Translations under genes and position numbers: made by a program
The notes under the pieces: generated by a model
The model's input: only the letters and a program-made list of their open reading frames with translations
Databases searched by the model: none
What the model was told of the DNA's origin: nothing
IMG/VR virus record: IMGVR_UViG_3300037461_000591
Direction: 5' to 3' (one strand)
DNA: 39,646 nucleotides
Origin: a virus
Shown here: positions 2,392-39,646 of the stretch, in pieces
Layout of the letters: every line of letters begins with the position of its first letter
Numbering within the stretch: the first letter of the stretch is position 1

Positions 2392-3078
2392 TCAAAGCAG
2401 ACGTGATAAATTTCTTTTCTGATCAATAACCGTAAATTCTTTTAATGCTTCAATAAGCTCTAAAAGTTTTTCTTTTGACGGTTCTGGTAAATGGTTATTC
2501 CCTGAATCAGCACCTATGTTTACTTGTTTTGGATTGCAAGCTTTAATTAATTGAATCATATCTTCTAAATCAAAATCCATAACAGGTTCAATAGTTACGA
2601 ATCTGTCATAAAAACTATCTATTAATTTGTGCATAAAACCGGCTCGCTCAACTGGACGAGGACAATTTTTCATTATATCTGGATAAAAACGATTTGTTTC
2701 AATAGTAGTGCAAATAGACGATCTATTAGGGATGTTTCCTAACAGGTTTAATATCCTTTTTGGATTTTTTGTTTGAAATAAATAACTACTAAACCAATAT
2801 TTATTACAATGTTCAATAGTCTTGTTTATCCATTCAATAGGAATGTCATCAGCAAATATATCACAACTTGACCCAACGAAAATAAAAGTATTTTTCCTTT
2901 GAAGCCAATTTTCTGAATTAAGTTGCGTTTTTAATTCTGATTCATCAAGCCTGACTGGTTTTTGTTTCCCCCAACGCTTCATATAGCAATAAGTACAACC
3001 GTGAGGACACTCCCCTTTTATCGGATTCCAAGTATGGGTAATCCAACTATACATATTCCCCTTTGATTCTCTTAACAT
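2392..3078 (-). CDS. Phage Gp37/Gp68 family (DUF5131) protein with a radical-SAM-like CX3CX2C triad
   Basis: 228 aa. The N-terminus SWITHTWNPIKGECPHGCTYCYMKRW matches the hallmark WNP..G C...GC..CY start of Gp37/Gp68 proteins. Confidence 0.75.
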   Translation of the reverse strand: MLRESKGNMYSWITHTWNPIKGECPHGCTYCYMKRWGKQKPVRLDESELKTQLNSENWLQRKNTFIFVGSSCDIFADDIPIEWINKTIEHCNKYWFSSYLFQTKNPKRILNLLGNIPNRSSICTTIETNRFYPDIMKNCPRPVERAGFMHKLIDSFYDRFVTIEPVMDFDLEDMIQLIKACNPKQVNIGADSGNNHLPEPSKEKLLELIEALKEFTVIDQKRNLSRLL

Positions 3079-3081
3079 ATC

Positions 3082-3234
3082 TTATGATTTATTTTCATTC
3101 ATTTCCTTTAATCTCCTTGCCTCTGCCCCGGCATCACGGTAAACTTTGTCATTGAATCTTCTGAACTTGTGTACCTTGTAGCCTACATACCACGCTAAAA
3201 GGATTATTACGATGATTATTAAAAAAACTGTCAT
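3082..3234 (-). CDS. Small single-pass membrane protein, 50 aa (below the ORF-track cutoff)
   Basis: My translation is MTVFLIIIVIILLAWYVGYKVHKFRRFNDKVYRDAGAEARRLKEMNENKS. It has an ATGA overlap with the upstream gene at 3231..3234, and its stop lies 3 nt before the next ATG. Confidence 0.55.
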   Translation of the reverse strand: MTVFLIIIVIILLAWYVGYKVHKFRRFNDKVYRDAGAEARRLKEMNENKS

Positions 3235-4004
3235 AATATTTCTTTTATAATTTTATAAAGTTTCGCTTCGCTCTCCTGCCAGCTGTGAAGTCCATATTCA
3301 TCAGGAGCAATATCTATATCTGCACCATAACCAAGCCGGGCAATAGTATGTAATGAACTAGCCCCATAACCTACCACCTTATCTTTAAAACTCCTTATAA
3401 ATCCGTGTCTTAAAAGCAGCATATATGTCTCGTAATCGACACGGGAGCTATAATATACCGGGGGGTCAAGGGCCCTGGGATCACGCTGAACGCCCTCATC
3501 GTAGCCATGATAAACAACATCAGGAATCCTTCCGCTATCATTTATAATCTTTGCACAAACAACAACATGATTGATCTTCTTATAAAACCACTCCCATAGT
3601 CGAATAAGTCTTTTATGTGGCTGAGTCTCTCTTGAAATACTATCCCGCATGTCAAGCAGAACCTTGCTCCCAAGTCTTTGCATAACCCATGCTGTAAGAA
3701 TCAAGCTCTCCGGGGGTGAAGTAAAAATGAAAAGATCATATTTCTTCCTGTGCTTAATACAGGGAATCAATGCCAACAGTCCCCAAAGTATTGCAGGAAG
3801 TTTTCTCCCGAACCTGAACACTCGGCCAAGAAACAAATAAGGCATAGTCTTGTCTCTCTGGCAATTTCTCGGAGAACGTGATGTCAGCACATGAAGCCGG
3901 ATGTCATTTCTCCAGCTCATATAACGTCCGAGGTTGATCCAGCGGAGCGACCCGGCACTCAGCCAGGGATACCAGTAATTAGTGACTAGAAGAATCTTTG
4001 TCAT
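3231..4004 (-). CDS. Glycosyltransferase-like protein (GT-B/GT4 N-terminal Rossmann-like domain), 257 aa
   Basis: The start KILLVTNYWYPWLSAGSLRWINLGRYM...IRLHVLT resembles the N-terminal domain of GT4 enzymes. It is too short for a full GT-B fold, so the assignment is tentative. Confidence 0.45.
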   Translation of the reverse strand: MTKILLVTNYWYPWLSAGSLRWINLGRYMSWRNDIRLHVLTSRSPRNCQRDKTMPYLFLGRVFRFGRKLPAILWGLLALIPCIKHRKKYDLFIFTSPPESLILTAWVMQRLGSKVLLDMRDSISRETQPHKRLIRLWEWFYKKINHVVVCAKIINDSGRIPDVVYHGYDEGVQRDPRALDPPVYYSSRVDYETYMLLLRHGFIRSFKDKVVGYGASSLHTIARLGYGADIDIAPDEYGLHSWQESEAKLYKIIKEIL

Positions 4005-4311
4005 TTTCTTTTTTTAAAAGTTCAAGGATCTCCATTATCACAGGATTTGTCTCAGATATGTTTCTCAGCTCCTCGCTTCTGAATCCTATCTTCGTATCTA
4101 AATAACCAATAAACAACGATATTGCAAGTATCGCAATCACTGCCAGAGGAATGGTCAGAATAGCATGTTGAAAGAATATCCGGGAAACATCACCTCCGAC
4201 GCTCTTAATAAGCACAATACCTATCAGCAAAAACTGAATCAGCGATACATATACCCGCGCTCTGTCAAGGTATATCTTCCAGCGAACAAGTGAACGTATA
4301 TTAATTTTCAT
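3979..4311 (-). CDS. Membrane protein with two predicted TM helices, 110 aa
   Basis: ORF track. The hydrophobic stretches are VYVSLIQFLLIGIVLI and AILTIPLAVIAILAISLFIGYL. It overlaps the next gene by 26 nt. Confidence 0.65.
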   Translation of the reverse strand: MKINIRSLVRWKIYLDRARVYVSLIQFLLIGIVLIKSVGGDVSRIFFQHAILTIPLAVIAILAISLFIGYLDTKIGFRSEELRNISETNPVIMEILELLKKENDKDSSSH

Positions 4312-4312
4312 A

Positions 4313-5110
4313 CTATATCCTCCAATTCATAGGGTGAACAATCATCTGATACCTCCCTCCTGTTTCCCATAAATCCCACGGAGGGGTCGTTTTCCATCCA
4401 TAATGCCCGTCAGCCAGATAGCCGTCAAAGGGCACATGGTATGCTTCGTATTCAAGCCGGAAATCCGACATAGGAAATATAATATCTCCCTTCCAGAAAT
4501 CCCAGCCCGGCGAAGGAAGTCCAAATACATTGTAATTCAGATACCTGTACTTTTTACAAAGCCGGTCGCCGTGTGCAGATGAGCCATTGATAACAGCCCC
4601 CATGCTCCTCAAATATTCAATTGGTTCGAGGATACAGGAGCGAATATCTTTTTTTGTCTCAAGAAATTCAGTGATAGCGTTATTGTGCCAACCGACCTCG
4701 TGACCTAATGACTGGATGTAAAGTATAGCATCTGTCATCTCATGTGATCCCCAGTAACGAGCCGTCCGGGTATTGAGAAAAAAGAATGTACTGTGAACCA
4801 ATCTTGTAGCTCCATGATTAAAAAGAGCCGCGTTAAGATCATCATTAATACCTGCTTCTATCTCAGCCATCCTGACCGCTTTATTAAGATCCTTGTCAAT
4901 ATCATGCCGAAGTAATATTCCCGGCCCGTCATCCGTGAATCTGATAAACCTGTGATCTTTTTTAAGAACTGTAAGGATAGATAAATAATAATCCTTCGTA
5001 AATTCTTTATTCAGAGTATATTTATCCGTTACCCTCCTAATTTGTTTTTTTAACCATTCCATAAAATCAATATTAAAATTGTTAATAATAATATGGCCCA
5101 GAAAAGACAT
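4313..5110 (-). CDS. Polysaccharide deacetylase-like (CE4 superfamily-like) protein, 265 aa
   Basis: The motifs LLRHDIDKD, GHEVGWHNN, SSAHGD and the C-terminal IVHPMNW follow the usual order of deacetylase-family metal and catalytic motifs. The start could instead be the internal Met at 5062. Confidence 0.55.
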   Translation of the reverse strand: MSFLGHIIINNFNIDFMEWLKKQIRRVTDKYTLNKEFTKDYYLSILTVLKKDHRFIRFTDDGPGILLRHDIDKDLNKAVRMAEIEAGINDDLNAALFNHGATRLVHSTFFFLNTRTARYWGSHEMTDAILYIQSLGHEVGWHNNAITEFLETKKDIRSCILEPIEYLRSMGAVINGSSAHGDRLCKKYRYLNYNVFGLPSPGWDFWKGDIIFPMSDFRLEYEAYHVPFDGYLADGHYGWKTTPPWDLWETGGRYQMIVHPMNWRI

Positions 5111-5143
5111 CCCTGAAAAGTAGCCCGTATCAATGCCAATGCG

Positions 5144-5707
5144 TTATTTATTTCTCTCGGCATAAACAATGTATATCCGCGGTGTGACCCATCGCAACAA
5201 AGTTCTGAATCCCAAAGCAAACGAAGGGCTTGTATATTTTGCCCGGTCAACGATTTCCCATCCTGCCTTCTCAAGCAACCAGTCAAATTGCCATTGTTCA
5301 AATTCGTGATAGTGCCATCCTGCAGGATTATTTTTATTTTTAAATGCAGGGGCAAACCATAGCCTTAAAGGAACCGAAGCAATAAGTTTCTTTCCGGGGA
5401 CGTTCTGTAATACCTGTAAAGGACTCATCAAGTGTTCAAGAACCTCAAGGGCAGTAACAGCATCGACAAGCTTATAAGACCTCAGCTCTTTATAATCAGT
5501 ATCAAAATCTTCGCCCCTGGTATTAACAACATTATACCCAGCCTCTGAAATAAAGTTACCTAAACCATTTTCTGTTCCGAGGTCAAGGATATTACTGCCT
5601 TCAGAAATATGCTTCTCAATAAAAGCCAGCGTTAAATTATATCTTCTCAGGCTCCAACGGTCATGAAGAAAGTCGTCGCGGTGAATAGGAAAATCTTTAT
5701 TTATCAT
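5144..5707 (-). CDS. Class I SAM-dependent methyltransferase, 187 aa
   Basis: Motif I is ILDLGTENGLGN, the acidic loop is DFD, and the post-I region is DAVTALEVLEHL. This is typical of the Methyltransf_11/23 type. Confidence 0.75.
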   Translation of the reverse strand: MINKDFPIHRDDFLHDRWSLRRYNLTLAFIEKHISEGSNILDLGTENGLGNFISEAGYNVVNTRGEDFDTDYKELRSYKLVDAVTALEVLEHLMSPLQVLQNVPGKKLIASVPLRLWFAPAFKNKNNPAGWHYHEFEQWQFDWLLEKAGWEIVDRAKYTSPSFALGFRTLLRWVTPRIYIVYAERNK

Positions 5708-6008
5708 TTGCTAAGAATTTTTGATATTCTATTTCTCTTTGAGAGAACCAATAATTGAGATGTATTTCTATTGCTTCCCCCGGTCTCCCTGTAAAAGAAA
5801 CAATTTTTAAAATCATTGCTTGTTCAAAATCAGTGCTTGTAATTTGTATCTTGTGATATTCTTTTGTCCTTAGTTTCCATTTACAGAAATCATTATAATT
5901 TCCAAATAGCTTAATAATAACACTATCTGTTCCAAGAATAAATTGAGTTTCGTTTTTTACAAATTCTCCATTTATTTTTGCCCTAAAATCTGATGCATTT
6001 ATTGCCAT
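5697..6008 (-). CDS. Hypothetical protein, 103 aa
   Basis: ORF track; overlaps the downstream gene by 11 nt. Confidence 0.65.
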   Translation of the reverse strand: MAINASDFRAKINGEFVKNETQFILGTDSVIIKLFGNYNDFCKWKLRTKEYHKIQITSTDFEQAMILKIVSFTGRPGEAIEIHLNYWFSQREIEYQKFLANDK

Positions 6009-9185: not shown

Positions 9186-9217
9186 CAAATATAAAACTTA
9201 TTTCAATACCATGCAAG
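9186..9217 (-). promoter_or_regulatory. Bacteroidota-type promoter (CTTG-N20-TATATTTG)
   Basis: On the minus strand, TATATTTG is at 9193..9186 and CTTG at 9217..9214, with a 20-nt spacer. The -33 element is embedded in TCTTGCAT, as in the two other promoters. Confidence 0.5.
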
Positions 9218-13781: not shown

Positions 13782-13813
13782 CAAACATATACTATTATAT
13801 ATAATAATGCAAA
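13782..13813 (-). promoter_or_regulatory. Bacteroidota-type promoter (TTTG-N20-TATGTTTG) with repeated GTTTGCAWT elements
   Basis: On the minus strand, TATGTTTG is at 13789..13782 and TTTG at 13813..13810, with an exact 20-nt spacer. The ATG of the HTH gene lies 10 nt downstream of the -7 element. Confidence 0.65.
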
Positions 13814-16715: not shown

Positions 16716-16859
16716 TCAGTTTATATTCTTCGTGCCGATGCGTACCGGATCAACGGTTTGCTTCTCATTAAATTTAATATACTCATCAATCTTCAGGCAA
16801 TGTGTTTCTCCATCGTCCCATTCAAAAGTAACATAACCATTTTTAATTGATTTTATCAT
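16716..16859 (-). CDS. Small hypothetical protein, 47 aa (below the ORF-track cutoff)
   Basis: My translation is MIKSIKNGYVTFEWDDGETHCLKIDEYIKFNEKQTVDPVRIGTKNIN. It has an ATGA overlap with the upstream gene at 16856..16859. Confidence 0.45.
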   Translation of the reverse strand: MIKSIKNGYVTFEWDDGETHCLKIDEYIKFNEKQTVDPVRIGTKNIN

Positions 16860-19027
16860 AGTGAGGTTAAAGCAAATTGTAAATTACCACAAACACTTAA
16901 TCCAACAAACCCGCCTGCTGTTGGGGAATAATAACACATTATCACATTATTCTTCAATATATCTCTATTTATATCATCAGTAACAACAAATGGAGTATCA
17001 AGTGCTAATAGTCCTAATTGTGTAAAAGTCGAAGTGGTTTTTATAAATGTTCTTTCATCTTCGTGAAACGTTGGATTTGGGCAAGAAAATAATTCCAGAG
17101 AATCAACTGCACCCTGCCTGCGTGTTATTATCATGTAATAAATAGAACCTTGTTTGAATATTCCAGGGCAATAATAATGATTATTAACCCCTCCCATTGA
17201 AACAGGATTAAATACTGGATTCTGAGGATCACGAGTCCAATTAATCAAATCAGTTGACCATGCTACTCCAACCTTTCGAGTTGAAGCACCCGGCCCATTT
17301 GTGACAAACATATAATAGGTACTACCTACTTTTATTACAGCCTCAACATCAAGATGGTTTGTATTATCATCCCATTGCCCTGGCGCACCGTGAGCATAAA
17401 CCGGATTCCCTGCATATTTAGACCACGTAAGACCATCTACTGAAGTTGCCAATCCTATCTGTCTCAATAAACCTGTATCTGCATTTGCCCCTGCATAAAG
17501 CATATACCACGTTGCCCCTTCTTTCCAAACCTGTGGAACATATAACATAGTATGATCCCATGTTCCATGAGCACCAAAATTCAATAACGGTTTATTCACC
17601 GTATCTTCTGTCCAATTAAATCCATCTGGCGAAGTGATTCTATTTATTAATGTATTTGGGAACGTCCCATAAACCCCGTACATATTATACGTACCACTTT
17701 CAACCCAAATAGATGACCAGATTGTGCGAACTGTAACACTACTTATTGGTCTGAATATTGCAGGCCATTGATTGAGTAATGAATAATCACCAGAATATTG
17801 TGTGGCATTTTTTATATTAGCTTTTGAAAGGTTTTCATCAAATGAGAATATTTCTTTTAATATTACCCTGTCATCATGCGAATTATTATCACATTTTACA
17901 TAACATCTCGTATTCAGACTACCCCCAAATGCTATCAATTTAATTTGATCAAGTTCCTCAATATGCCATGCATCAGGATTAGTGGAGTCATATCTGCCTC
18001 TCCCTGTTGAATTAGTCACCCTCGCAAGTGCATTCCATAAACTTACATTTGATCGATCCCAAGCAGAATATGGAATATTAAGCATGGAATCTGCAAGATT
18101 ATGATTTGATGAATCTCCTGCATGGTTTGAATCAAGTTCATACCCTGCCGTTGTATAATATGTTGGAATTGTTGATGGGGTATCGTCAGACTTATAGGGT
18201 AAATATATTTCTCTGAGATAACTGGCTCCTGCCGTGACTTTATAAAGTGAATAACCATGATCCAGCATCCATGAACTTGCTTCTGCACAATAATAAGCAT
18301 TATCTTCACCAACAAGTGAAGGAGTTAATATCTCATTAGATAATATATTTATACAATTACTACCCAAAAACAAAAACCAATCAACATCAGGAGTACCACT
18401 TTTTGCATTTGCAGGAGTTTGAACAGTTGAATATATCTTTATCTGTGTTAATGGAGTAAACATATAGGGCGGAGCAAACAAACAATTATAAGTAAGATGT
18501 TCATTTGATGCCATTGTAAGATTCCCACCGTATTGAGTTCCATCAATATATAACTGGCATATCGTCCCATTCCTTATAAAAACAAAATCATGGAATAGAT
18601 TGTCATAATAATATTCATTAGGAATACACACCCCTGATTGAACATAAACATTATTAGCCTTATGATACCATATCCTTAAATTCCCAGGATTGCCAGTTCC
18701 ATAAGGTATCTGAATCAAATAATTCTGACCATTGGATGTCCTGACGATAGAGTTTTGATTAACATTACGTAACTTTCCTTGCCAATAAGCAGTAAACACA
18801 GTCCCAATATCTTTTGAAGATGCCGGGGTAAAATTCTCATCCTCTGCCCCCAAAGCCTGTGCCGACTTAAAACAAGAAGGTAATATTGTAACAGGAGAAC
18901 CTCCTAAAGAATCAGGTAAAGACAACCCACTTCGAGTTCCCTCTTTAACCCATAAGTCATTATGTTGCGTCCAGTACGCACTCCACGAAAAACCTGTGAG
19001 AAATTTCTGAATTATCTCTCGTCTCAT
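16856..19027 (-). CDS. Tail-associated LamG-like plus five-bladed beta-propeller glycoside-hydrolase-like protein (candidate depolymerase/receptor-binding protein)
   Basis: 723 aa. The N-terminal half has a concanavalin/LamG-like pattern (FVFIRNGTICQLYIDG). The C-terminal ~280 aa has blade-like repeats (GTWDHTMLYVPQVWKEGATWYMLYAG; IGLATSVDGLTWSKYAGNPV; VGVAWSTDLINWTRDPQNPVF), as in GH43/GH32/GH130-type propellers. Confidence 0.65.
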   Translation of the reverse strand: MRREIIQKFLTGFSWSAYWTQHNDLWVKEGTRSGLSLPDSLGGSPVTILPSCFKSAQALGAEDENFTPASSKDIGTVFTAYWQGKLRNVNQNSIVRTSNGQNYLIQIPYGTGNPGNLRIWYHKANNVYVQSGVCIPNEYYYDNLFHDFVFIRNGTICQLYIDGTQYGGNLTMASNEHLTYNCLFAPPYMFTPLTQIKIYSTVQTPANAKSGTPDVDWFLFLGSNCINILSNEILTPSLVGEDNAYYCAEASSWMLDHGYSLYKVTAGASYLREIYLPYKSDDTPSTIPTYYTTAGYELDSNHAGDSSNHNLADSMLNIPYSAWDRSNVSLWNALARVTNSTGRGRYDSTNPDAWHIEELDQIKLIAFGGSLNTRCYVKCDNNSHDDRVILKEIFSFDENLSKANIKNATQYSGDYSLLNQWPAIFRPISSVTVRTIWSSIWVESGTYNMYGVYGTFPNTLINRITSPDGFNWTEDTVNKPLLNFGAHGTWDHTMLYVPQVWKEGATWYMLYAGANADTGLLRQIGLATSVDGLTWSKYAGNPVYAHGAPGQWDDNTNHLDVEAVIKVGSTYYMFVTNGPGASTRKVGVAWSTDLINWTRDPQNPVFNPVSMGGVNNHYYCPGIFKQGSIYYMIITRRQGAVDSLELFSCPNPTFHEDERTFIKTTSTFTQLGLLALDTPFVVTDDINRDILKNNVIMCYYSPTAGGFVGLSVCGNLQFALTSL

Positions 19028-25668: not shown

Positions 25669-26048
25669 TCTTTTTTTGGCTCCTCGCCCTCCTTCGGCTT
25701 CTCTGCGCTCTTTTTCAACTTGCCAAGCAACTCAGTAACTCCTTTGAGATACAGATCACGGCTCTTGACGCTCATATACTCATGCCATACAACAGCATTC
25801 GAGTGCTTGTATTTTGGCTTTTTCTTAAGTACCATACAAGCAGAAAGATATGCCTGCCACAATATGCTCAGTGACACATCATAAGTGCCCACGTTCTTTT
25901 TATCAAAGAGATCAAAGAAATCCAGCCCCAGTTCATCGCTCGTAAGTTCAAGGGTCATGATCCGAAACAGGAATGGTACATTTTTTTCGTACATCAATCC
26001 AAATTTCTTGAAGGGCATCTGGACCATCAGTATATCATCTTTTGTCAT
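25665..26048 (-). CDS. Tail assembly chaperone (gpG-like), 127 aa
   Basis: It sits between the tail tube genes and the tape measure, has an acidic/lysine-rich C-terminus, and has a slippery site at its 3' end. Confidence 0.8.
   Translation of the reverse strand: MTKDDILMVQMPFKKFGLMYEKNVPFLFRIMTLELTSDELGLDFFDLFDKKNVGTYDVSLSILWQAYLSACMVLKKKPKYKHSNAVVWHEYMSVKSRDLYLKGVTELLGKLKKSAEKPKEGEEPKKE
25671..25677 (-). promoter_or_regulatory. -1 programmed ribosomal frameshift slippery site A_AAA_AAA
   Basis: The minus strand reads GAG CCA AAA AAA GAG TGA. The heptamer is in X_XXY_YYZ phase in the zero frame. The -1 frame continues AGA GTG ACC CTC GTG GAG, which is RVTLVE... of the downstream ORF. Confidence 0.8.
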
Positions 26049-26812
26049 GAAGCAACATGTTTAAAAGCGTAAATTGAAGACAAGGCCCAATTTGCTGCTC
26101 CTGAATTCCTCCATCTGAGTGAGGCCGAGGCATCATTCCCTGTCACTGTTAATGTCAGGATATTAAGCCCTGCCACAAGGGTAGCCACATTTGATATATC
26201 TGCACTTGTATTGTCCCAGATGGCTACTGATGGAACCTCCCCGGAATTCAGTGTCAGGAATACAGCTACCTTGATCACATCCCCCAAGCTCACACTGAAA
26301 GTATTTGAATTACAATAGGCTGCCCCTGCTGCATTTATAGCAGATGTTATCGCAATACCTGAGACAGTCAGTGTATCATAATCAGTACCCCCGGCATCCG
26401 GGTCTGTGACCAGTGCTGCTGATGTACCTTTAAGCTGATACAGTGGCCCCTTGAGTTTCAAAGAACCTGAAAGAGCAAATGGGTTTTCCTGTGGTGCAGA
26501 TAGCTTAACACTTTTAACATCCACCTCTCCGACAAAAGGATAAGTGACCCCCCCGGTGATGACCATGAGCAATGAAGTCCTCGATGTTATATATGCAATC
26601 AGCTCTCCGCCTGAAAGACCGGTCGTTGAGAACAAAGCATCAAAGTCTATCGAAGCTCTTCTAAGTCCGTTCATGTGCTCCTCCCACCCCCCTGACTCTT
26701 TATTCGTGACATCCGGGAGGTCTTGCTCTGCCGAGACATCCAGACCTTTTTGCAAGGCAATAGCGACACCATCAGCATAGAGCAGAACGAGTGTTCCGTT
26801 GATCTTTGCCAT
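26045..26812 (-). CDS. Major tail (tube) protein paralog 2, TP901-1 family core plus a ~125-aa C-terminal beta-sandwich-like module
   Basis: 255 aa. The N-terminus MAKINGTL...EQDLPDVTNKESGGWEEHMNGLRRASIDF parallels 26817..27218. The C-terminal module resembles aa ~100-212 of 20380..23736. Confidence 0.75.
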   Translation of the reverse strand: MAKINGTLVLLYADGVAIALQKGLDVSAEQDLPDVTNKESGGWEEHMNGLRRASIDFDALFSTTGLSGGELIAYITSRTSLLMVITGGVTYPFVGEVDVKSVKLSAPQENPFALSGSLKLKGPLYQLKGTSAALVTDPDAGGTDYDTLTVSGIAITSAINAAGAAYCNSNTFSVSLGDVIKVAVFLTLNSGEVPSVAIWDNTSADISNVATLVAGLNILTLTVTGNDASASLRWRNSGAANWALSSIYAFKHVAS

Positions 26813-26816
26813 GACG

Positions 26817-27218
26817 TTAGGTTATTAATGCCAGTGCTCCGTTGCCCTTTATTGAGCCGGAATAATCATTTCCTGCCTCCATTGGTGCGCCAAGTTTTAT
26901 ATTCTTGAACGTACCATTGCCTTGCCAGCCTTTTGTCGAGCCGGATGTAGGTTTAAAACCTATCACCGTATCAGCGGTCCGGGCAATGATGATAGCCATA
27001 ACCTCGTCGGCTGTAAGTCCTGAACCGGACTCATCATACTTACCGCTGAAGTCAATGCCCCATCTTCGGATTCCGTTAATATGTTCATCCCATCCTGCCG
27101 AGTCTTTATTAGTTACATCCGGCAGATCCTGCTCCAGGTTTAGTGAAGCATCGGTGAGGCAGATCATCTTATCACTGCCTGAGTACACCGCATACAAAGT
27201 TCCATTAATCTTTGCCAT
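26817..27218 (-). CDS. Major tail (tube) protein, TP901-1 family
   Basis: 133 aa. MAKINGTL...EQDLPDVTNKDSAGWDEHINGIRRWGIDFSG matches the Phage_tail_2-type signature. Confidence 0.8.
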   Translation of the reverse strand: MAKINGTLYAVYSGSDKMICLTDASLNLEQDLPDVTNKDSAGWDEHINGIRRWGIDFSGKYDESGSGLTADEVMAIIIARTADTVIGFKPTSGSTKGWQGNGTFKNIKLGAPMEAGNDYSGSIKGNGALALIT

Positions 27219-29228: not shown

Positions 29229-29762
29229 CTAATAACGAAGTCCGATTTTGAGAGCGAGTTTTGATGTTATTGAGCAAGTATTTGCATCACCACCCACAGC
29301 CTCAAATTTAAGGTAACGCCATAGTACGCCGGTCGTTACATCTTTAAGCGACTGTGAATGACTTGTAGCAGTAGTAAGCTGTGCAGCAGGAAGATAAGCG
29401 GTAGTTGGATGCATTAGACATGAATCCAGCTTTGTCCAGTATGTCCCGTTAACACTGCCATAAGTGTTATAAGTCACATGGTTGCCTGCAGCCCTGCCGA
29501 CGGTGAGCACTGTATCATATTCAAAAAGAAACTGATAATAATACAGTGCGCTCTTATTGACTGCAAAGATCCAGTAGAGGGTTGTTGCCCCTCCGATGGA
29601 GTCTTTCAGCGACGTAGCATCCCAGTCCCCGGTATGGGTATAGTTGAATGCCACTTTATAGGTCTCGTTTGTTCCGAGCGTGTAAGTCGTCCCGGTTGTC
29701 TGTCCGAGGGAAATTGTCATCAGCGCAAATATCCCTGCAAGAATTAAGATTAACTTTTTCAT
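29229..29762 (-). CDS. Signal-peptide-bearing beta-rich protein, 177 aa (function unknown)
   Basis: It has the N-terminal signal-like MKKLILILAGIFALMTISLG, an aromatic-rich beta pattern, and ends ...KLALKIGLRY. It lies between the major capsid and connector genes. Confidence 0.7.
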   Translation of the reverse strand: MKKLILILAGIFALMTISLGQTTGTTYTLGTNETYKVAFNYTHTGDWDATSLKDSIGGATTLYWIFAVNKSALYYYQFLFEYDTVLTVGRAAGNHVTYNTYGSVNGTYWTKLDSCLMHPTTAYLPAAQLTTATSHSQSLKDVTTGVLWRYLKFEAVGGDANTCSITSKLALKIGLRY

Positions 29763-33856: not shown

Positions 33857-35149
33857 TTATACTACATCCCCCTGGTCGTTGTCCGTCCCTGTCAGATATG
33901 CTACAAGCCATACAAGAGCATCTATCCTGTTCGGGCTCTTTCCCTCTTTAGGTATCCATGTACACATCTCATCTTCAAGTTTTGGAAGTGAACCGACATG
34001 ATGAATCCTCTTTTGTTCATAAAGAGACTGAACAGGCTCGGCCCTTGTCACCTTGCCCCGTGAAGCCCATACCCCTTTATAAGAGACATTGCGGTCAATC
34101 TGACGAATGACTGTCTCTACCAGGTCGCCTCCGTTATTTGTCTCAGCAACTATACGATCGAGTTTCTGTTTGTTATAAACGTCAATAGCTTTACCGGCCC
34201 AGACAAGCGGAGAGAATATCCCGGAGAGGTCTTCAGTTATATATATCTCTCCCATAGCATCCATGCCACCTATCATAATACCACACTCGTCGGATTCATC
34301 TGTAGAAGTTACTGAGGGGTCTATTGCTACAGCTGCCTTAACAAGCTCAGGACACTTGAACACACGTGAAGCATCAATCATCTTCAGTGACCACAATGCC
34401 CCCTCAATATCCTCAAGTACCTCGGCGTTAAGTTCCTGACGTCCCAGCCGTGTTCCTTCATATTTCTTGACTATCGTATTGAGGAAGGCAGGAGCAAGGT
34501 TTTGAATGTTCTCGTAGGTAGTGCCGGATGTAACATATACTGTCGGGTCTTTGATCATTGCACGGATCATCTTTGTAGGCCGGGGCGTTGTCGTTGCTAT
34601 GACCCGCGGATGAGTGCCAAGACGGAGACCGAGCATCATATTATCCCATGTCTCCTCGGCATACCGCCATGAGGCCAGCTCGTCGCACCAGGCAGCATGA
34701 CACTGAGGACCACGCAACCTATCCGGCTCGTCAGCTGTGAAGATCAAAGCATGAGCCCCGTTTTTCCATGTGAGTTTACGTTTTGAAGGTTCATACTTTG
34801 GCATGTCCCAGGGAGGAGAACAGCGAAGTATCCCAGACTCCCCTTCGATCATAATGTCACGGGCGTCGCCTGCTGTTGCTCCTATGAAGTGAAGAATAGG
34901 GTACTGATCTTTCCAGATACGCATTGTCTCAGCTCCCGTGCGGGTTTTCCCGTTTCCGCGGCCTGCCTTGATGAACCATACTGTCCAGTCACCGGGAGGC
35001 TCGATCTGCGAAGGTCGTGCGTTGAGCGACCAGCGATACTGAGCTACCTGGAGAAGCTGATTAAGCTCTGTCTTTGCTTCCGGTCTTAATGAGCTTACTA
35101 ATTCTCTTGATAAGTTCATCATCAGACAAAGTATTAAAACTATTACCAT
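33857..35149 (-). CDS. terL: Terminase large subunit
   Basis: It has a Walker A-like KAGRGNGKTRTGAE, a Walker B-like region, and a C-terminal nuclease-like part. The real start is probably an internal Met at 35122 or 35119. Confidence 0.88.
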   Translation of the reverse strand: MVIVLILCLMMNLSRELVSSLRPEAKTELNQLLQVAQYRWSLNARPSQIEPPGDWTVWFIKAGRGNGKTRTGAETMRIWKDQYPILHFIGATAGDARDIMIEGESGILRCSPPWDMPKYEPSKRKLTWKNGAHALIFTADEPDRLRGPQCHAAWCDELASWRYAEETWDNMMLGLRLGTHPRVIATTTPRPTKMIRAMIKDPTVYVTSGTTYENIQNLAPAFLNTIVKKYEGTRLGRQELNAEVLEDIEGALWSLKMIDASRVFKCPELVKAAVAIDPSVTSTDESDECGIMIGGMDAMGEIYITEDLSGIFSPLVWAGKAIDVYNKQKLDRIVAETNNGGDLVETVIRQIDRNVSYKGVWASRGKVTRAEPVQSLYEQKRIHHVGSLPKLEDEMCTWIPKEGKSPNRIDALVWLVAYLTGTDNDQGDVV

Positions 35150-35468
35150 TGTTTGTGAGATCTAACTGTTGTGTTTCAATATATCCTCGTTTCTTTCCCT
35201 TAGTCTTTAAAAAAAATATCGTAGCGATTGTATCTTTATCCTGTATCTGTTTATGAAGCATTGATTCAGCAAAATCAAGAGTTACCTCTGCAATATCATC
35301 TACTGCGGCTTTATACTTAATATCAGCCTTATACCAGTCATAATGGGTACTTCTCTTGATACCAACTTTCTCACACGCCAACGTAATAACACCAAGTGCT
35401 TTAATAAGAGCTTTTATCATCTCTTTCTTTTTTAAGGCCGTTTGTTGTTTAGTGTAAGACATTGCCAT
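35061..35468 (-). CDS. terS: Terminase small subunit (HTH-containing)
   Basis: 135 aa, lying directly upstream of and overlapping terL. The N-terminal HTH-like segment is ITLACEKVGIKRSTHYDWYK, followed by ...IFFLKTKGKKRGY. Confidence 0.7.
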   Translation of the reverse strand: MAMSYTKQQTALKKKEMIKALIKALGVITLACEKVGIKRSTHYDWYKADIKYKAAVDDIAEVTLDFAESMLHKQIQDKDTIATIFFLKTKGKKRGYIETQQLDLTNNGNSFNTLSDDELIKRISKLIKTGSKDRA

Positions 35469-35988
35469 TCTTTCTAATTACTATCTCAGGATCGAGCTTT
35501 CTCATCCTGTCTATTATTACCTGACAGTATTTAGGGTCAATCTCCATTCCGTAACACTTTCGGTTGAGTTGATGTGAGGCTATCATTGTCGTCCCGCTTC
35601 CCGCAAACCCATCAAGAACAATATCTCCCTCCTTGGTGCTATTAGATATCTGATAAGCAAATAAACCCACTGGCTTCATAGTTGGGTGTTCTGCATTTCT
35701 ATTTGGCCTCTCAAAGTTTAACACAGTTGTTTGTTTTCTATCTCCATACCATCCATGCGCAGCACCCTCAACCCATCCATATAAACAAGGCTCATGCTTC
35801 CATTGATAATCCTGTCTCCCCATTACCATTGAGTTCTTAACCCACACCAAACACTGTTTCATCATTATCCCTGCCTCTTTCATTGCCCTTCTAAAATTGT
35901 ACCCCTCCGAATCAGCATGCCATATATATGAATATCTGATAATCTTATCTTCTTTGGAATCGTCATCAGATTGTAATATTAAATACTT
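35449..35988 (-). pseudogene. N6/N4 DNA methyltransferase lacking its N-terminal DPPY-containing region (truncated or remnant)
   Basis: The C-terminal part has the SAM motif VLDGFAGSGTTMIA and EHPTMKP. The frame is open upstream only to the stop at 35989..35991 and reads KYLILQSDDDSKEDKIIRYSYIWHADSEGYNFRRAMKEAG, with no DPPY and no ATG before 35883. Confidence 0.6.
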
Positions 35989-36119
35989 TCAATCAGCATC
36001 TTGAGTGAAAATGGTTTTTCACAACAGTAAAAAATAATTATAACTTAAATCACAGAGAAAATGAAATTAACTTATTAACATAGTTATCAACATATATAGA
36101 TAGTTAAATATACTACAAT

Positions 36120-36146
36120 AAAAAAAGCCTCCTGGTCAGGGAGGCT
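36120..36146 (-). terminator. Rho-independent terminator ending the early/middle transcription unit
   Basis: On the minus strand, AGCCTCC-CTGACCA-GGAGGCT is followed by TTTTTTATTG. It lies 54 nt downstream of the stop of 36200..36421. Confidence 0.8.
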
Positions 36147-36199
36147 CCGCTTAAAGATCAATGATTACTTTCTCATAGGCAAAGAATAACTGGTTAATA

Positions 36200-36421
36200 C
36201 TAGAACTTGACACCGTTAAAGACCGTGTCGGGCCATTTATCTTTGTCTGGCTCGTAAATATCTATAGATCGTTTCGATGCCAGGAACTCTATATTGTCGT
36301 CTCTGAGTAACAGATAATACCGATCTTCTTCGACAATCTCATAAACCCCTTTCAGTGGATCCCCGTTTTTCTTTGGAGGGTGTATCTCAAAATAAGCAAG
36401 GCCGGGTTTATAGTCTGTCAT
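36200..36421 (-). CDS. Hypothetical protein, 73 aa
   Basis: ORF track; last gene before the terminator. Confidence 0.65.
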   Translation of the reverse strand: MTDYKPGLAYFEIHPPKKNGDPLKGVYEIVEEDRYYLLLRDDNIEFLASKRSIDIYEPDKDKWPDTVFNGVKF

Positions 36422-36443
36422 TTGACTGGTTCTTTAGAGGGAG

Positions 36444-36785: not shown

Positions 36786-36814
36786 CTTTCTTGTTATTAG
36801 TTTGTTTCTTTAGC
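36783..36814 (-). repeat. Junction repeat copy A (30/32 identical to 37637..37668)
   Basis: catctttcttgttattagtttgtttctttagc. The 24-nt core 36791..36814 is identical to 37645..37668. It spans the start codon of 36444..36785 and the last six codons plus stop of the radical SAM gene. Confidence 0.9.
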
Positions 36815-37639
36815 TAATTTATATTTTAAATATCCTTCAATTATAAAGTATTCATCACTACAAGTGCCATCTGTAAAATAATTAAGAGAATTACAACTTG
36901 TTTCTACTGTTCTCCAAAAAACAACATCTTTCCCATATACATTAAATTGTTGTGCGCCACAAAATTGTCCTGTTTGTCTATAATTATGAGAAAAATTCTT
37001 ACAATATTCTTCAAATAAATCAATATCTTCTTGAAGAAAACTTAATCTTGTATCTGTTGAAATTCTTCGTATCTGAATGTATTTTACATTGGGGAATTTT
37101 GCTGTAAACACTATAAGATTATAAACTTCGTTAATATTATACCGGTTTAAAACAATAGAAATACGCACATTCTCCCCTGATTGTGGTATGATCTTGTCCC
37201 ATCGGGGTATTTTTTTAGTTGTCATAATCTTATAATTTGTGGCAGGATTTAATGTGTGTATTGAATAACCTATTTCTCCATGCATTTTTTGTATAGACAA
37301 TATTTTTTTCTCAGCTAAATATCCATTTGTACGTACTCCCACAATAAACCCGTATGTTTGTAGGTGATCTATAATTTCGTCAAGATACTTATATTGTAAT
37401 CCATCGGCAGTTTGTCCTGTTAAATATAGTTTATCAATATTATTATCTCGACATTGTTGTAAAAATAACCCAAAATTTAACCAATTATTAAAATGAACAT
37501 TAAGTTGATTTTTCCCCTGTAATTCACATTGAATGTCCTTGCCTAAACAAAAATAGCAATCCACATTACACCTTCCTAACAAATTTATGTTAGCGAATGA
37601 ATACTTGTCCCTTTTTCTATTTTTATTTATTACTTGCAT
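36797..37639 (-). CDS. Radical SAM protein, 280 aa (subfamily not recognised)
   Basis: It has the CX3CX2C site in LLGRCNVDCYFCLGKD and a GGEP-like LYLTGQTADGL. It is very AT-rich. Confidence 0.75.
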   Translation of the reverse strand: MQVINKNRKRDKYSFANINLLGRCNVDCYFCLGKDIQCELQGKNQLNVHFNNWLNFGLFLQQCRDNNIDKLYLTGQTADGLQYKYLDEIIDHLQTYGFIVGVRTNGYLAEKKILSIQKMHGEIGYSIHTLNPATNYKIMTTKKIPRWDKIIPQSGENVRISIVLNRYNINEVYNLIVFTAKFPNVKYIQIRRISTDTRLSFLQEDIDLFEEYCKNFSHNYRQTGQFCGAQQFNVYGKDVVFWRTVETSCNSLNYFTDGTCSDEYFIIEGYLKYKLAKETN

Positions 37640-37668
37640 CTTATTTGTTATTAGTTTGTTTCTTTAGC
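37637..37668 (-). repeat. Junction repeat copy B
   Basis: catcttatttgttattagtttgtttctttagc. It spans the start codon of the radical SAM gene and the stop region of the nucleotidyltransferase gene. Confidence 0.9.
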
Positions 37669-38758
37669 GGGGGTTACGCATTTCTATTAAAAGATTGTGT
37701 ACGAATTTAGGATTAACATGAGTTGGTAATTCTGACCTCTCGAATGCCTCATCCATTTGAACTTTTTTTTGTTCTATCAATCCGATTATTTCTTCATAGC
37801 TCGCCTCCCCACGTCTGACACTCAGTAGCCATTCTCTATTAGGACGGACAAGATTGATTCCCTTGCCTTGTGCTACTTCAATAGCCATATCAAGCATCCG
37901 TAAACAATGCATAAGGTTCTTTCCATCATAACCTTTGCCATGCTGTGCGTTATCGTTATATCGCACCGGATTACGTTTTTCCACCCACTCCCAATATTCT
38001 TTATATTCCTTGCAATATTGAGAATACCCGTTAAGATTGTAGTAAAGAAATCCCTCTAACATAAGACCTTTGGGAATTTCACTATGCCGTAATTGGTTGC
38101 TTTCATCTAATTCTATCCCCCTAAAGTTGTGTGTTTCTATATCGGCATATCGGGGATTCTCATTCTTGGTTTCTGCAAGATAGTCATAGTAAACCTTATA
38201 AATTTGTTCACCATTAGGAAGTTCGGCTAATCCACAAAATTCCTGTTTCTTTTTATGCTTATCTAACCACTGTTTTGCCAACATGGTATATCCATCTTCC
38301 TTTTCAAAAATATAGCAGAAGTCTAAAGGTGTTTTGCGTTCCTTATCTATCGGGTTAACTATTTTTTTATTCAGCCCCCTTGCTTTCTTTATTTGTGAGA
38401 TAGAATATCCACCAAAGGTATTACGGCACTTTGTTGTCAAAAACTTATCCTTATTATCATATAATAGTTTAATTTTGGGGGACATAAATAAAATCTTGTC
38501 TTTGGGCACGAATAATTCCTCAAGAATATTGGGGTTATTCTGTTCAAGTAAGTGAACGAACCTGTTAAGTTCATAATAAACTATATCACTTGTAGTATTA
38601 TTAATCTGTTCTGAATATCCTTTACCTAAAAGAAATTCATTAGGAAGCATATAAATCCCCCTAATGTCGGTATCGGATGTAGGTAAATCAAGTCCGTAAG
38701 CCTTGCTCCCAGCGATAACTTCATAAATTAAATATGGTCGAACTTCTTCTATTGTCAT
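37664..38758 (-). CDS. Pol-beta superfamily nucleotidyltransferase (PF10127 / RlaP-like)
   Basis: 364 aa. The N-terminus VIAGSKAYGLDLPTSDTDIRGIYMLP matches the GS..YG....SD.D.RG signature of this family. Confidence 0.7.
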   Translation of the reverse strand: MTIEEVRPYLIYEVIAGSKAYGLDLPTSDTDIRGIYMLPNEFLLGKGYSEQINNTTSDIVYYELNRFVHLLEQNNPNILEELFVPKDKILFMSPKIKLLYDNKDKFLTTKCRNTFGGYSISQIKKARGLNKKIVNPIDKERKTPLDFCYIFEKEDGYTMLAKQWLDKHKKKQEFCGLAELPNGEQIYKVYYDYLAETKNENPRYADIETHNFRGIELDESNQLRHSEIPKGLMLEGFLYYNLNGYSQYCKEYKEYWEWVEKRNPVRYNDNAQHGKGYDGKNLMHCLRMLDMAIEVAQGKGINLVRPNREWLLSVRRGEASYEEIIGLIEQKKVQMDEAFERSELPTHVNPKFVHNLLIEMRNPR

Positions 38759-39288: not shown

Positions 39289-39646
39289 TTATTGGTGTTT
39301 AAATTGGTTAGCATATTCTTCCATAGCTTCAATAATAAGAGGCCAATTATAGTTTACTGTTGTGCAATCAACGTGCTTTAGTAGAATTGAATCCGCTGTC
39401 ATCTCTGGCTCTACTGACTTAAATTGCTTGGCGTTCTTTGAAGTATCTGGAAATTGTTCTGTGATGTCTATTCTGTTAACATCAGGATTAAGTACGTTGG
39501 TGTCTTTTATGTTTGGATATACTGACTTAAACCGTGGTATTTCTTCACCAGCTAAATACCTTGAAAAGGTTTCACATCCCATACATGGATCGGTAAGGAC
39601 ACAAGTAACGGCGGTACTGTAAGGGCATGGATATAGTTTACTATTA
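39289..39646 (-). CDS. C-terminal part of the wrap-around gene that starts at 513
   Basis: The frame is open from the window end to the stop at 39289..39291. The ORF-track Met at 39582 is internal and equals position 63 in copy 1 of the overlap. Confidence 0.7.
   Translation of the reverse strand, partial: NSKLYPCPYSTAVTCVLTDPCMGCETFSRYLAGEEIPRFKSVYPNIKDTNVLNPDVNRIDITEQFPDTSKNAKQFKSVEPEMTADSILLKHVDCTTVNYNWPLIIEAMEEYANQFKHQ
39520..39646. repeat. Terminal direct repeat, copy 2 (identical to 1..127)
   Basis: Exact 127/127 match to the window start. Confidence 0.95.

Follow-up and report, generated by a model that had tools for sequence, protein, structure and literature searches.

A conserved phage sugar-gene cassette within a mosaic region of a 39.5-kb siphophage genome, and its candidate role in amino-sugar glycan tailoring

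The viral sequence IMGVR_UViG_3300037461_000591 (IMG/VR; 39,646 nt, called the window here and the source of all gene coordinates unless a locus is named) carries six consecutive minus-strand genes at positions 2392-5707, which an original prediction had read as one coherent sugar-modifying operon. All six open reading frames (ORFs) are present, but across related phages only three of them co-occur: genes for a methyltransferase (MT), a polysaccharide-deacetylase-like protein (PDA-like) and a glycosyltransferase-like protein whose C-terminal domain is reduced (GT-half). As judged by comparison of related loci, these three constitute a conserved phage cassette, and the six genes make up a mosaic region instead of a single system. 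The three-gene remnant in the window probably builds and tailors an amino-sugar glycan. That this glycan cassette acts on virion proteins, with the remaining genes as separate insertions, is the reading we prefer as a whole, and we hold it tentatively. The six genes, in order of transcription, are:

5144-5707, minus strand: MT, class I S-adenosylmethionine (SAM)-dependent methyltransferase, 187 aa (Pfam Methyltransf_23)
4313-5110, minus strand: PDA-like, candidate sugar N-deacetylase resembling carbohydrate esterase family 4 (CE4), 265 aa (motifs, Foldseek, fusions, gene context)
3979-4311, minus strand: 110-aa ORF with two predicted transmembrane (TM) segments (hydropathy KD19 2.2 and 2.8), an orphan at the PDA-like/GT-half junction
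3231-4004, minus strand: GT-half, GT-B-fold glycosyltransferase-like protein with reduced C-terminal domain, 257 aa (sub-threshold Pfam match and fold)
3082-3234, minus strand: 50-aa ORF with a predicted N-terminal TM segment (hydropathy KD19 2.55), an orphan
2392-3078, minus strand: rSAM, DUF5131 (Gp37/Gp68) radical SAM enzyme, 228 aa (two Pfam models and a cysteine motif)

A sugar-gene cassette in a mosaic region

Besides the 39.7-kb contig L009, related loci were obtained from exact-protein look-ups and metagenome scans. Their gene orders, with GT4 denoting a full-length glycosyltransferase of that family, were:

L009 and L019-21: MT, PDA-like, GT-half, rSAM, GT4, with three DNA methyltransferase genes set among them in L009 and one in L019-21
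L022: MT, GT-half, PDA-like, GT4
L025: GT4, PDA-like, GT-half, the 5' end being cut at the contig edge
L028: MT, PDA-like, GT4
L058, L062, L063 and L066/67: MT with GT-half, PDA-like absent

MT, PDA-like and GT-half were found together, in varying order, in the window, L009, L019-21 and L022. MT adjoins PDA-like and/or GT-half in L009, L019-21, L022, L028, L058, L062, L063 and L066/67, and it accompanies GT-half and/or GT4 in the window and at least eight other lineages. The co-occurrence search called for by the original prediction was thus borne out for the sugar genes, whereas the DUF5131 gene joined them only in loci of the L009/L019 type and the membrane ORFs never did. In five related lineages of uncultured phages the cassette also has a full-length GT4 (41% identity between the L009 and L022 copies), which is missing from the window (tblastn E > 0.8). 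On this comparison the window genome has lost its full-length GT4, and the cassette there is a three-gene remnant of a four-gene cassette. The surmise that the combination is not a described system stood up: a nucleotide search of the region and tblastn with PDA-like or GT-half yielded no match among 50,697 GenBank phage records (INPHARED), and no paper on this gene combination was found in the literature.

Base composition separates the cassette from the genes lodged in it. In L009 and L019 the four sugar genes have GC contents of 0.46-0.51 (0.53-0.63 at third codon positions, GC3), and the interleaved genes lie lower, at 0.36-0.42 for three DNA methyltransferases and 0.35 for rSAM (GC3 0.29). 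The window rSAM has a GC content of 0.32, as do the small genes downstream of it, versus 0.40-0.43 for the window sugar genes, and the 50-aa ORF sits exactly at the composition break. Lower GC than the sugar genes, together with the absence of rSAM from the cassette in L022 and L025 and its solitary occurrence elsewhere, indicates from sequence that rSAM and the DNA methylases are later insertions into an older sugar cassette. The lower-GC DNA methyltransferase genes of L009 (1482-5273) are of N6/N4, Dam and C5 type, each placed singly between sugar genes.

The rSAM protein was correctly recognized as a Gp37/Gp68 (DUF5131) protein with a radical SAM triad. It scored above cutoff with both DUF5131 (PF07505; E 5e-13, 49.6 bits, cutoff 28.9) and Radical_SAM (PF04055; E 7e-9, 36.5 bits, cutoff 29.5), carries a canonical CX3CX2C motif (C24-PHG-C28-TY-C31) and has no TM segment by hydropathy. 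No functional study of DUF5131, Gp37Gp68 or TcmP was found in the literature, in agreement with the statement that the family has no assigned function. A scan of viral contigs revealed rSAM homologues (38-64% identity) in 16 viral loci, of which L009 alone also has the sugar genes; the other 15 phage loci have rSAM without the cassette. Neighbors elsewhere include an MmcB-like nuclease, GT25 with GIY-YIG, DnaA_C and an N6_N4 methyltransferase, and tblastn against GenBank phages returned nine weak matches only. The rSAM gene also occurs at head-gene junctions, between portal and MuF and between a 420-aa gene and portal (L011 1331-4560; L016 3681-7189). By its distribution, rSAM moves independently and has been inserted next to the cassette, and its function is therefore not to be inferred from its cassette neighbors.

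Hydropathy gave two TM segments for the 110-aa ORF and one for the 50-aa ORF, as had been predicted. Neither has a significant homologue in any fetched related locus (phmmer, jackhmmer), and NCBIfam searches with the six proteins returned noise only, including a spurious beta-lactamase match for the 50-aa ORF. Elsewhere the PDA-like/GT-half junction holds a C5 DNA methyltransferase gene (L009), a 56-aa ORF (L025) or nothing (L019). From these comparisons both membrane ORFs are orphan insertions outside the conserved cassette; lacking homologues in related loci, they lose the value once given them as pointers to an envelope target.

An integrated system, in which rSAM and the membrane proteins work with the sugar enzymes, appears improbable. 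In two lineages rSAM comes immediately after GT-half; in L009/L019 it is flanked by GT-half and GT4, stop and start codons overlapping; and another rSAM copy, in L006, is followed by a GT25 gene. Set against this arrangement are the rSAM-free cassettes of L022 and L025, the 15 rSAM loci devoid of a cassette, the strong composition difference between rSAM and the sugar genes, and membrane ORFs unique to the window.

The three sugar proteins and their relatives

The label polysaccharide-deacetylase-like fits the PDA-like protein remotely, the indications being its motifs, Foldseek matches, the fusions of its relatives and the genomic surroundings. Sequence searches of Pfam, PHROG, NCBIfam and the Protein Data Bank (PDB) gave no match with the window protein. 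It fails the Pfam Polysacc_deac_1 (CE4) model, which only two of 42 relatives touch (E 0.0013 or worse), and the PDB sequence search produced chance matches to ribosomal uL13 only, via the short HEVGW motif. The 42 homologues, retrieved from a word index, share the motifs RHDxD, HExGxHN, AHGD, YEA and HPxxW, and in their alignment H53-D54-x-D56, H121-E-x-G-x-H126 and H243 appear invariant or nearly so; these may correspond to the Asp-His-His metal triad and the catalytic Asp and His of CE4 enzymes. Foldseek with an AlphaFold2 (AF2) model (predicted local distance difference test score, pLDDT, 92) placed CE4 deacetylases at the top of the high-probability matches (1ny1, probability 0.90, E 0.023; 2cc0, probability 0.87, target-normalized template-modeling score, TMt, 0.48). 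In this check, also called for by the original prediction, the probabilities lean toward the distorted (beta/alpha)-barrel of CE4, and no match attained E 0.001 or better. Collectively, the motifs and model make PDA-like a candidate CE4-like sugar N-deacetylase. It has neither a TM segment by hydropathy nor a signal peptide. Its true start is likely M17 (5062, 249 aa), the start seen in the NCBI copy P0001 and in all homologues.

A profile search recovered 5,987 representatives of the PDA-like family at E <= 1e-3. The domain thus appears to define a large sugar-deacetylase-like family with no Pfam model of its own (~6,000 representatives at 50% identity). In many members, 640-715 aa long, the domain is joined to Sulfotransfer_3 in either order (P0182-P0324; L031 9001-11070); a GT2/Anp1 domain is the fusion partner in one. 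Cellular members sit in surface-polysaccharide loci: in L023 among glycosyltransferases of the GT1_2, GT9, GT4 and GT2 families, and in L031 amid a WecA-like enzyme, Polysacc_synt_2, three GT4s, ManC, PGM, a sulfotransferase and two methyltransferases. The clade close to the window protein was restricted to phage-like contigs in searches that included 185,579 reference genomes.

A profile scan of viral contigs with PDA-like revealed 22 further loci. Clustering of the viral loci at 80% identity gave 24 clusters, or ~23 lineages, since L033/34 holds two copies. In nine of these lineages the PDA-like cassette lies between TerL and portal, and five more have it a short way upstream of the terminase, so that 14 of ~23 have it inside or just upstream of the packaging/head genes. 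Between TerL and portal it comprises one or two divergent GT-A proteins, PDA-like and a GNAT-like protein with the signature 'INTS..RQG..GHxxxLKxGIM'. Loci with this arrangement are L024, L033-L036, L038-L040, L042/43, L046 and L050-L052. The signature family is homologous both to a protein that weakly matches LPG_synthase_C (GNAT fold) and to the gene adjoining the deacetylase in cellular L023 (hhalign E ~1e-38); PDB sequence searches with the GNAT-like and GT-A-like families gave nothing convincing. A GT-A/deacetylase/GNAT-like cassette that recurs between terminase and portal in at least nine viral lineages is, like the large PDA-like family with its sulfotransferase fusions, a useful observation whatever the acceptor.

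GT-half had been described as a GT4-like Rossmann half-protein, a description supported by sub-threshold Pfam matches to the GT4 N-domain and by a GT-B fold match of the AF2 model (pLDDT 86). The Glyco_trans_4_4 match (E 5e-5) reaches 24.2 bits, against a cutoff of 29.7. Pfam Glycos_transf_1, the sign of a second full Rossmann-like donor-binding domain, was not matched; the modeled C-domain spans ~80 residues, with two short strands and a few helices at residues 160-240. Foldseek against the PDB returned GT-B enzymes (E 4e-5 to 1e-3, probability 1.00, query-normalized score, TMq, 0.45-0.53), including GtfB, a lipopolysaccharide (LPS) glycosyltransferase, PimB', BshA and MshA, and viral GT1/GT4 proteins were matched as well. 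A profile search against PDB sequences found nothing. An apparent E-x7-E motif, EYGxHSWxE, lies near the C-terminus in nine of 11 family members (EYGLHSWQE at 236-244 in the window protein), and hydropathy detects no TM segment. GT-half was found on phage-like contigs only (11 homologues, 20 metagenome loci), and its one hit in the 185,579 reference genomes was a 1.2-kb contig of a metagenome-assembled genome (MAG). The full-length GT4s of related loci resemble GT4 families of exopolysaccharide (EPS) and LPS synthesis. A bacillithiol-like pathway of BshA-type GT4, deacetylase and methyltransferase was considered and dropped, as the BshA and MshA fold matches are generic for GT4; the window has no BshC-like ligase, and a BshC match of 35061-35468 (E 0.0036) is not credible.

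The MT protein passes Methyltransf_23 narrowly (27.4 bits, cutoff 27, E 3e-6, residues 25-153), which upholds its assignment as a class I SAM methyltransferase. Its motif I, ILDLGTENG, is divergent from E/DxGxGxG and is followed downstream by a VLEHL motif; there is no TM segment by hydropathy. Among more than 2,900 homologues is a 173-aa chromosomal methyltransferase of Flavobacteriaceae, ~55% identical and followed by a GT2 gene, and this similarity supports a Bacteroidota host for the phage. The Flavobacteriaceae pair of 173-aa methyltransferase and GT2 (~285 aa) is conserved downstream of fabH (L026 6810-9403; L027 6153-9448), and in Maribacter the MT homologue lies near bamA, skp and uppS.

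Genome setting, chemistry and acceptor

An exact 127-bp direct terminal repeat (1-127 and 39520-39646) shows that the window comprises an entire phage genome, circularly closed and ~39.5 kb long. It belongs to an HK97-type siphophage encoding DnaB, RecT and an SMC-like ATPase. Among minus-strand ORFs of at least 90 aa (Pfam E <= 1e-3) there was no integrase family and no TET/JBP/5mYOX or thymidylate-synthase-like (ThyS-like) gene, and no recognizable lysogeny gene was found in the complete genome. The absence of an integrase, asserted at the outset, therefore holds for the complete genome within that size limit.

A discrete six-gene operon, as originally proposed, could not be delimited. The junctions in transcription order are +33, +1, -26, -4 and +3 nt; gaps of 33 nt or less are thus correct as annotated, but the overlaps are not all of ATGA type, one being 26 nt. 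The gap between MT and PDA-like widens from 33 to 81 nt if PDA-like starts at M17. Upstream, the gene at 5697-6008 and the start of MT share 11 nt, and tight packing extends over a chain of 19 genes (9044 to 536) in which every junction is 68 nt or less. Scans for sigma-70 promoters and terminators gave matches at chance level. Because the same spacing runs through 19 genes with no internal promoter or terminator signal, there is no evidence of a discrete six-gene operon. A minus-strand regular-expression scan for TAnnTTTG, the Bacteroidota -7 element, gave 23 matches versus ~19 expected and no box at the cassette start. Four boxes fall in the few intergenic gaps, at 9193, 13789, 14726 and 16830 (minus strand), and the only one near the cassette is that at 9193, upstream of the replication genes and of the whole chain:

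9186-9193, minus strand: candidate Bacteroidota-type -7 promoter box TATATTTG, tentative, in the 215-nt gap upstream of the cassette-bearing gene chain

The boxes in gaps are candidate transcription starts and fit a Bacteroidota host. The box at 13789 (minus strand) has TTTG 20 nt upstream.

The chemistry we propose has three steps. A transferase would first place a sugar containing N-acetyl-hexosamine on the acceptor; PDA-like would then strip the N-acetyl group to leave a free amine; and MT would add a methyl group to the glycan, whose site may be a hydroxyl or the freed amine, the latter being what NodS methylates once NodB has acted. This sequence of transfer, de-N-acetylation and methylation is suggested by partners of PDA-like able to modify a freed amine, namely Sulfotransfer_3 in cellular fusions, the GNAT-like protein in phage cassettes and L023, and MT in the window. 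All steps would be cytoplasmic, since the enzymes have no TM segments or signal peptides and need SAM and nucleotide sugars.

As the acceptor of this glycan we favor, with reservation, the virion proteins of the phage. The confinement of GT-half and the close PDA-like clade to phage-like contigs suggests a phage-specific acceptor, and we count for the virion a complete genome with no integrase, enzymes with no TM segments, and the head-gene location of the cassette in 14 of ~23 viral lineages. A further argument is the mycobacteriophage precedent, the virion-glycosylation operons with methyltransferase and glycosyltransferase genes, to which the window cassette would on this reading be a Bacteroidota-phage counterpart.

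Several points weigh against this reading. Deacetylase activity derives from motifs and a weak fold match, with Foldseek E values of 0.014 or worse (not significant). The GT-half donor-binding domain is much reduced and the full GT4 is gone, so the window cassette may be partly disabled. MT is ~55% identical to a host housekeeping enzyme encoded beside a GT2, and cellular PDA-like relatives occupy surface-polysaccharide loci; both fit a host-glycan target equally well. The promoter-like box at 9193 puts the cassette in a replication-gene unit, not the structural-gene unit. Head-gene junctions are general hot spots for accessory genes, and the argument from a position between TerL and portal to a virion target was weakened when the unrelated rSAM gene turned up at the same kind of junction; the location is consequently weak evidence. 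The mycobacteriophage precedent discussed below, as summarized in its source, has no deacetylase. Finally, any acceptor is inferred, none being pointed to directly, and virion and host glycans are inseparable by computation.

The original prediction had listed a host envelope glycan, phage DNA and virion glycans as targets, a list that remains apt except that DNA has become unlikely. The envelope alternative, almost as probable as the virion reading but likewise doubtful, has the cassette act in the cytoplasm on lipid-linked intermediates from which the host makes a surface polysaccharide, LPS or glycolipid. Addition of a sugar, or its de-N-acetylation and methylation, would alter the surface of the infected cell, and the outcome would be superinfection exclusion or progeny that do not stick to debris. 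It draws on the Flavobacteriaceae enzyme similar to MT, with its GT2 and, in Maribacter, bamA, skp and uppS neighbors; on the polysaccharide loci of PDA-like relatives (WecA-like, Polysacc_synt_2, GT4, GT2, GT9); on the likeness of the relatives' GT4s to EPS/LPS families; and on the two small membrane ORFs of the window. A sub-threshold GH43 match (E 3e-6) in the 723-aa tail protein at 16856-19027 (minus strand) hints at a polysaccharide receptor, and this protein may be a polysaccharide-degrading receptor-binding protein. The hot-spot nature of head junctions and the promoter-like box shared with replication genes help this alternative too, as both weaken the locational case for the virion. 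Conversely, the complete genome has no integrase or recognizable lysogeny gene; Pfam detected no flippase, polytopic glycosyltransferase or acyltransferase of Gtr/Oac type; the membrane ORFs are not conserved; and, apart from the one 1.2-kb MAG contig, the reference genomes hold neither GT-half nor the close PDA-like clade in cellular or prophage form. Such a phage-only distribution is unusual for enzymes acting on host glycans.

Hypermodification of phage DNA, with the transferase(s) glycosylating DNA and PDA-like and MT tailoring the DNA-bound sugar to block restriction, is very unlikely. Three DNA methyltransferase genes interleave with the cassette in L009, a C5 methylase lies near the GT-half gene in L029, a truncated N6_N4 methylase stands just upstream of the window terminase, and one BFVD match of GT-half is annotated as DNA alpha-glucosyltransferase (E ~1e-3). 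Clusters that glycosylate phage DNA have been described in the vicinity of terminase and structural genes (bioRxiv 10.1101/2023.12.21.572611). The complete 39.5-kb genome, however, encodes no ThyS-like or 5mYOX/TET enzyme among ORFs of at least 90 aa, and a DNA acceptor is unlikely without an enzyme that forms 5-hydroxymethylpyrimidine. The methyltransferase genes lodged in the cassette have a base composition unlike that of the sugar genes and so look like later insertions. No examined PDA-like relative lies beside a 5mYOX/TET or ThyS-like gene; their partners are glycosyltransferases, sulfotransferases, GNAT-like proteins and methyltransferases. A variant in which rSAM is wired into the cassette, its radical chemistry creating a nucleic-acid attachment point for an amino sugar that is then de-N-acetylated and methylated, would bypass 5-hydroxymethylpyrimidines altogether. 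The rSAM position and overlapping codons in L009/L019 and the three interleaved DNA methyltransferases would fit this route, which we regard as highly improbable.

Decay offers another explanation: deprived of a full-length GT4, the window cassette would yield no product and drift as accessory DNA. We consider this quite unlikely. The GT4 is indeed absent, low-GC insertions and orphan ORFs abound around the cassette, and a DNA methylase in the neighborhood is apparently truncated. The MT, PDA-like and GT-half ORFs are nonetheless intact and keep their family-invariant residues. Moreover, several other contigs have MT and GT-half without GT4 or PDA-like, and L028 has GT4 without GT-half, which suggests that either transferase can suffice. 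The probability left over belongs to a small-molecule product or a disabled remnant. If glycosylation of virion proteins is correct, phage-encoded virion glycosylation would extend from actinobacteriophages to Bacteroidota-type siphophages and gain a new tailoring step, the exchange of an amino-sugar N-acetyl group for a methyl or other acyl group. Such an extension would be relevant to how stable phages are, how hosts and immune systems recognize them and how they are engineered.

Other features of the genome deserve mention. The gene at 5697-6008 (minus strand; 103 aa, GC 0.28, GC3 0.17), which flanks the cassette, is likely another recent insertion. An accessory pair at 36797-38758, separate from the cassette and situated between its region and the terminase, consists of an RlaP-family nucleotidyltransferase (37664-38758, minus strand; Pfam E 5e-20) and an adjoining second radical SAM protein (36797-37639, minus strand; GC 0.285), whose MoaA/viperin-like NCBIfam matches are weak and far under cutoff. 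Within 35449-36443 (minus strand), just upstream of the terminase, the N6_N4 DNA methyltransferase ORF covers the C-terminal half of the family model only, lacking the DPPY part, and looks truncated or disrupted; directly upstream of it is a 560-nt stretch free of ORFs. Right after the major capsid gene, a 177-aa protein (29229-29762, minus strand) has an N-terminus resembling a signal peptide or lipoprotein, MKKLILILAGIFALMTISLG, unusual in a head module. Tandem tail-tube paralogues (Phage_tail_2; 26045-27218, minus strand) both begin MAKINGTL, and the second has a C-terminal extension of ~120 aa.

Comparison with known systems

Like the Gtr/Oac cassettes of temperate phages (GtrABC, Oac), the cassette consists of phage genes predicted to alter a glycan. 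Those systems employ polytopic membrane proteins in integrating prophages, whereas the enzymes here are soluble and the genome has no integrase; no GtrA/B/C or acyltransferase-3 family match was found by Pfam among the window proteins. Phage DNA glycosylation, by T-even alpha- and beta-glucosyltransferases or by clusters of C5 methyltransferase, 5mYOX and glycosyltransferase, likewise repurposes GT-A and GT-B enzymes from host polysaccharide synthesis, sometimes near the terminase. All described DNA sugar modifications need a 5-hydroxymethylpyrimidine supplied by a ThyS-like or 5mYOX/TET enzyme (bioRxiv 10.1101/2023.12.21.572611), and this obligatory enzyme was not found among ORFs of at least 90 aa in the window genome. 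The cassette thus fails the defining features of both Gtr/Oac cassettes and DNA-hypermodification clusters. As for the adjacent rSAM, the 228-aa protein joins the DUF5131 family through its Pfam matches and CX3CX2C motif, its alignment being limited to the N-terminal 140 of 243 model positions.

The closest enzymatic likenesses of PDA-like are among CE4 deacetylases (Polysacc_deac_1: PdaA, PgdA, NodB, PgaB), with which it shares RHDxD, the two histidines of HExGxH, a C-terminal histidine and the top Foldseek probabilities. It differs in matching no Pfam model, in Foldseek E values short of significance and in having no signal peptide. The five-residue histidine spacing of HExGxH presumably corresponds to that of PgaB.

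In Nod-factor synthesis, NodC makes a HexNAc glycan, the CE4 enzyme NodB takes off one N-acetyl group, and the resulting amine is then N-methylated by NodS, a class I SAM methyltransferase, or N-acylated by NodA. The phage cassettes would follow the same cytoplasmic logic, pairing the deacetylase with MT in the window lineage or with the GNAT-like protein between TerL and portal. Neither NodB nor NodS is detectably related in sequence, and the transferase has a GT-B fold, versus GT2 for NodC. The animal heparan-sulfate enzyme NDST joins a deacetylase to a sulfotransferase, and the freed amine is sulfated. Compared by architecture alone, many cellular PDA-like relatives resemble it as deacetylase-sulfotransferase fusions; these are prokaryotic and annotated only as 'hypothetical protein', and the window protein is a stand-alone domain. 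By analogy, then, the cassette would work like Nod-factor tailoring and NDST, but by sequence it is a member of neither.

In mycobacteriophages of cluster O, capsid and tail-tube proteins are modified by the products of an O-methyltransferase gene and the three glycosyltransferase genes that follow it (PMC11600133, citing Freeman et al. 2023). The window cassette has no sequence relationship to these operons, to judge from the tblastn searches of GenBank phages, and the operons, as summarized in that source, belong to phages of actinobacterial hosts and include no truncated GT-B. Shared with the virion-glycosylation operons of clusters O/F are adjacent methyltransferase and glycosyltransferase genes in a phage and, on the same summary, a soluble methyltransferase and glycosyltransferase cassette in a siphophage, outside any DNA-modification pathway. 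So far as that account extends, they come closest as a precedent for glycan synthesis by a lytic phage with genes of its own; in the present case such a glycan is predicted.

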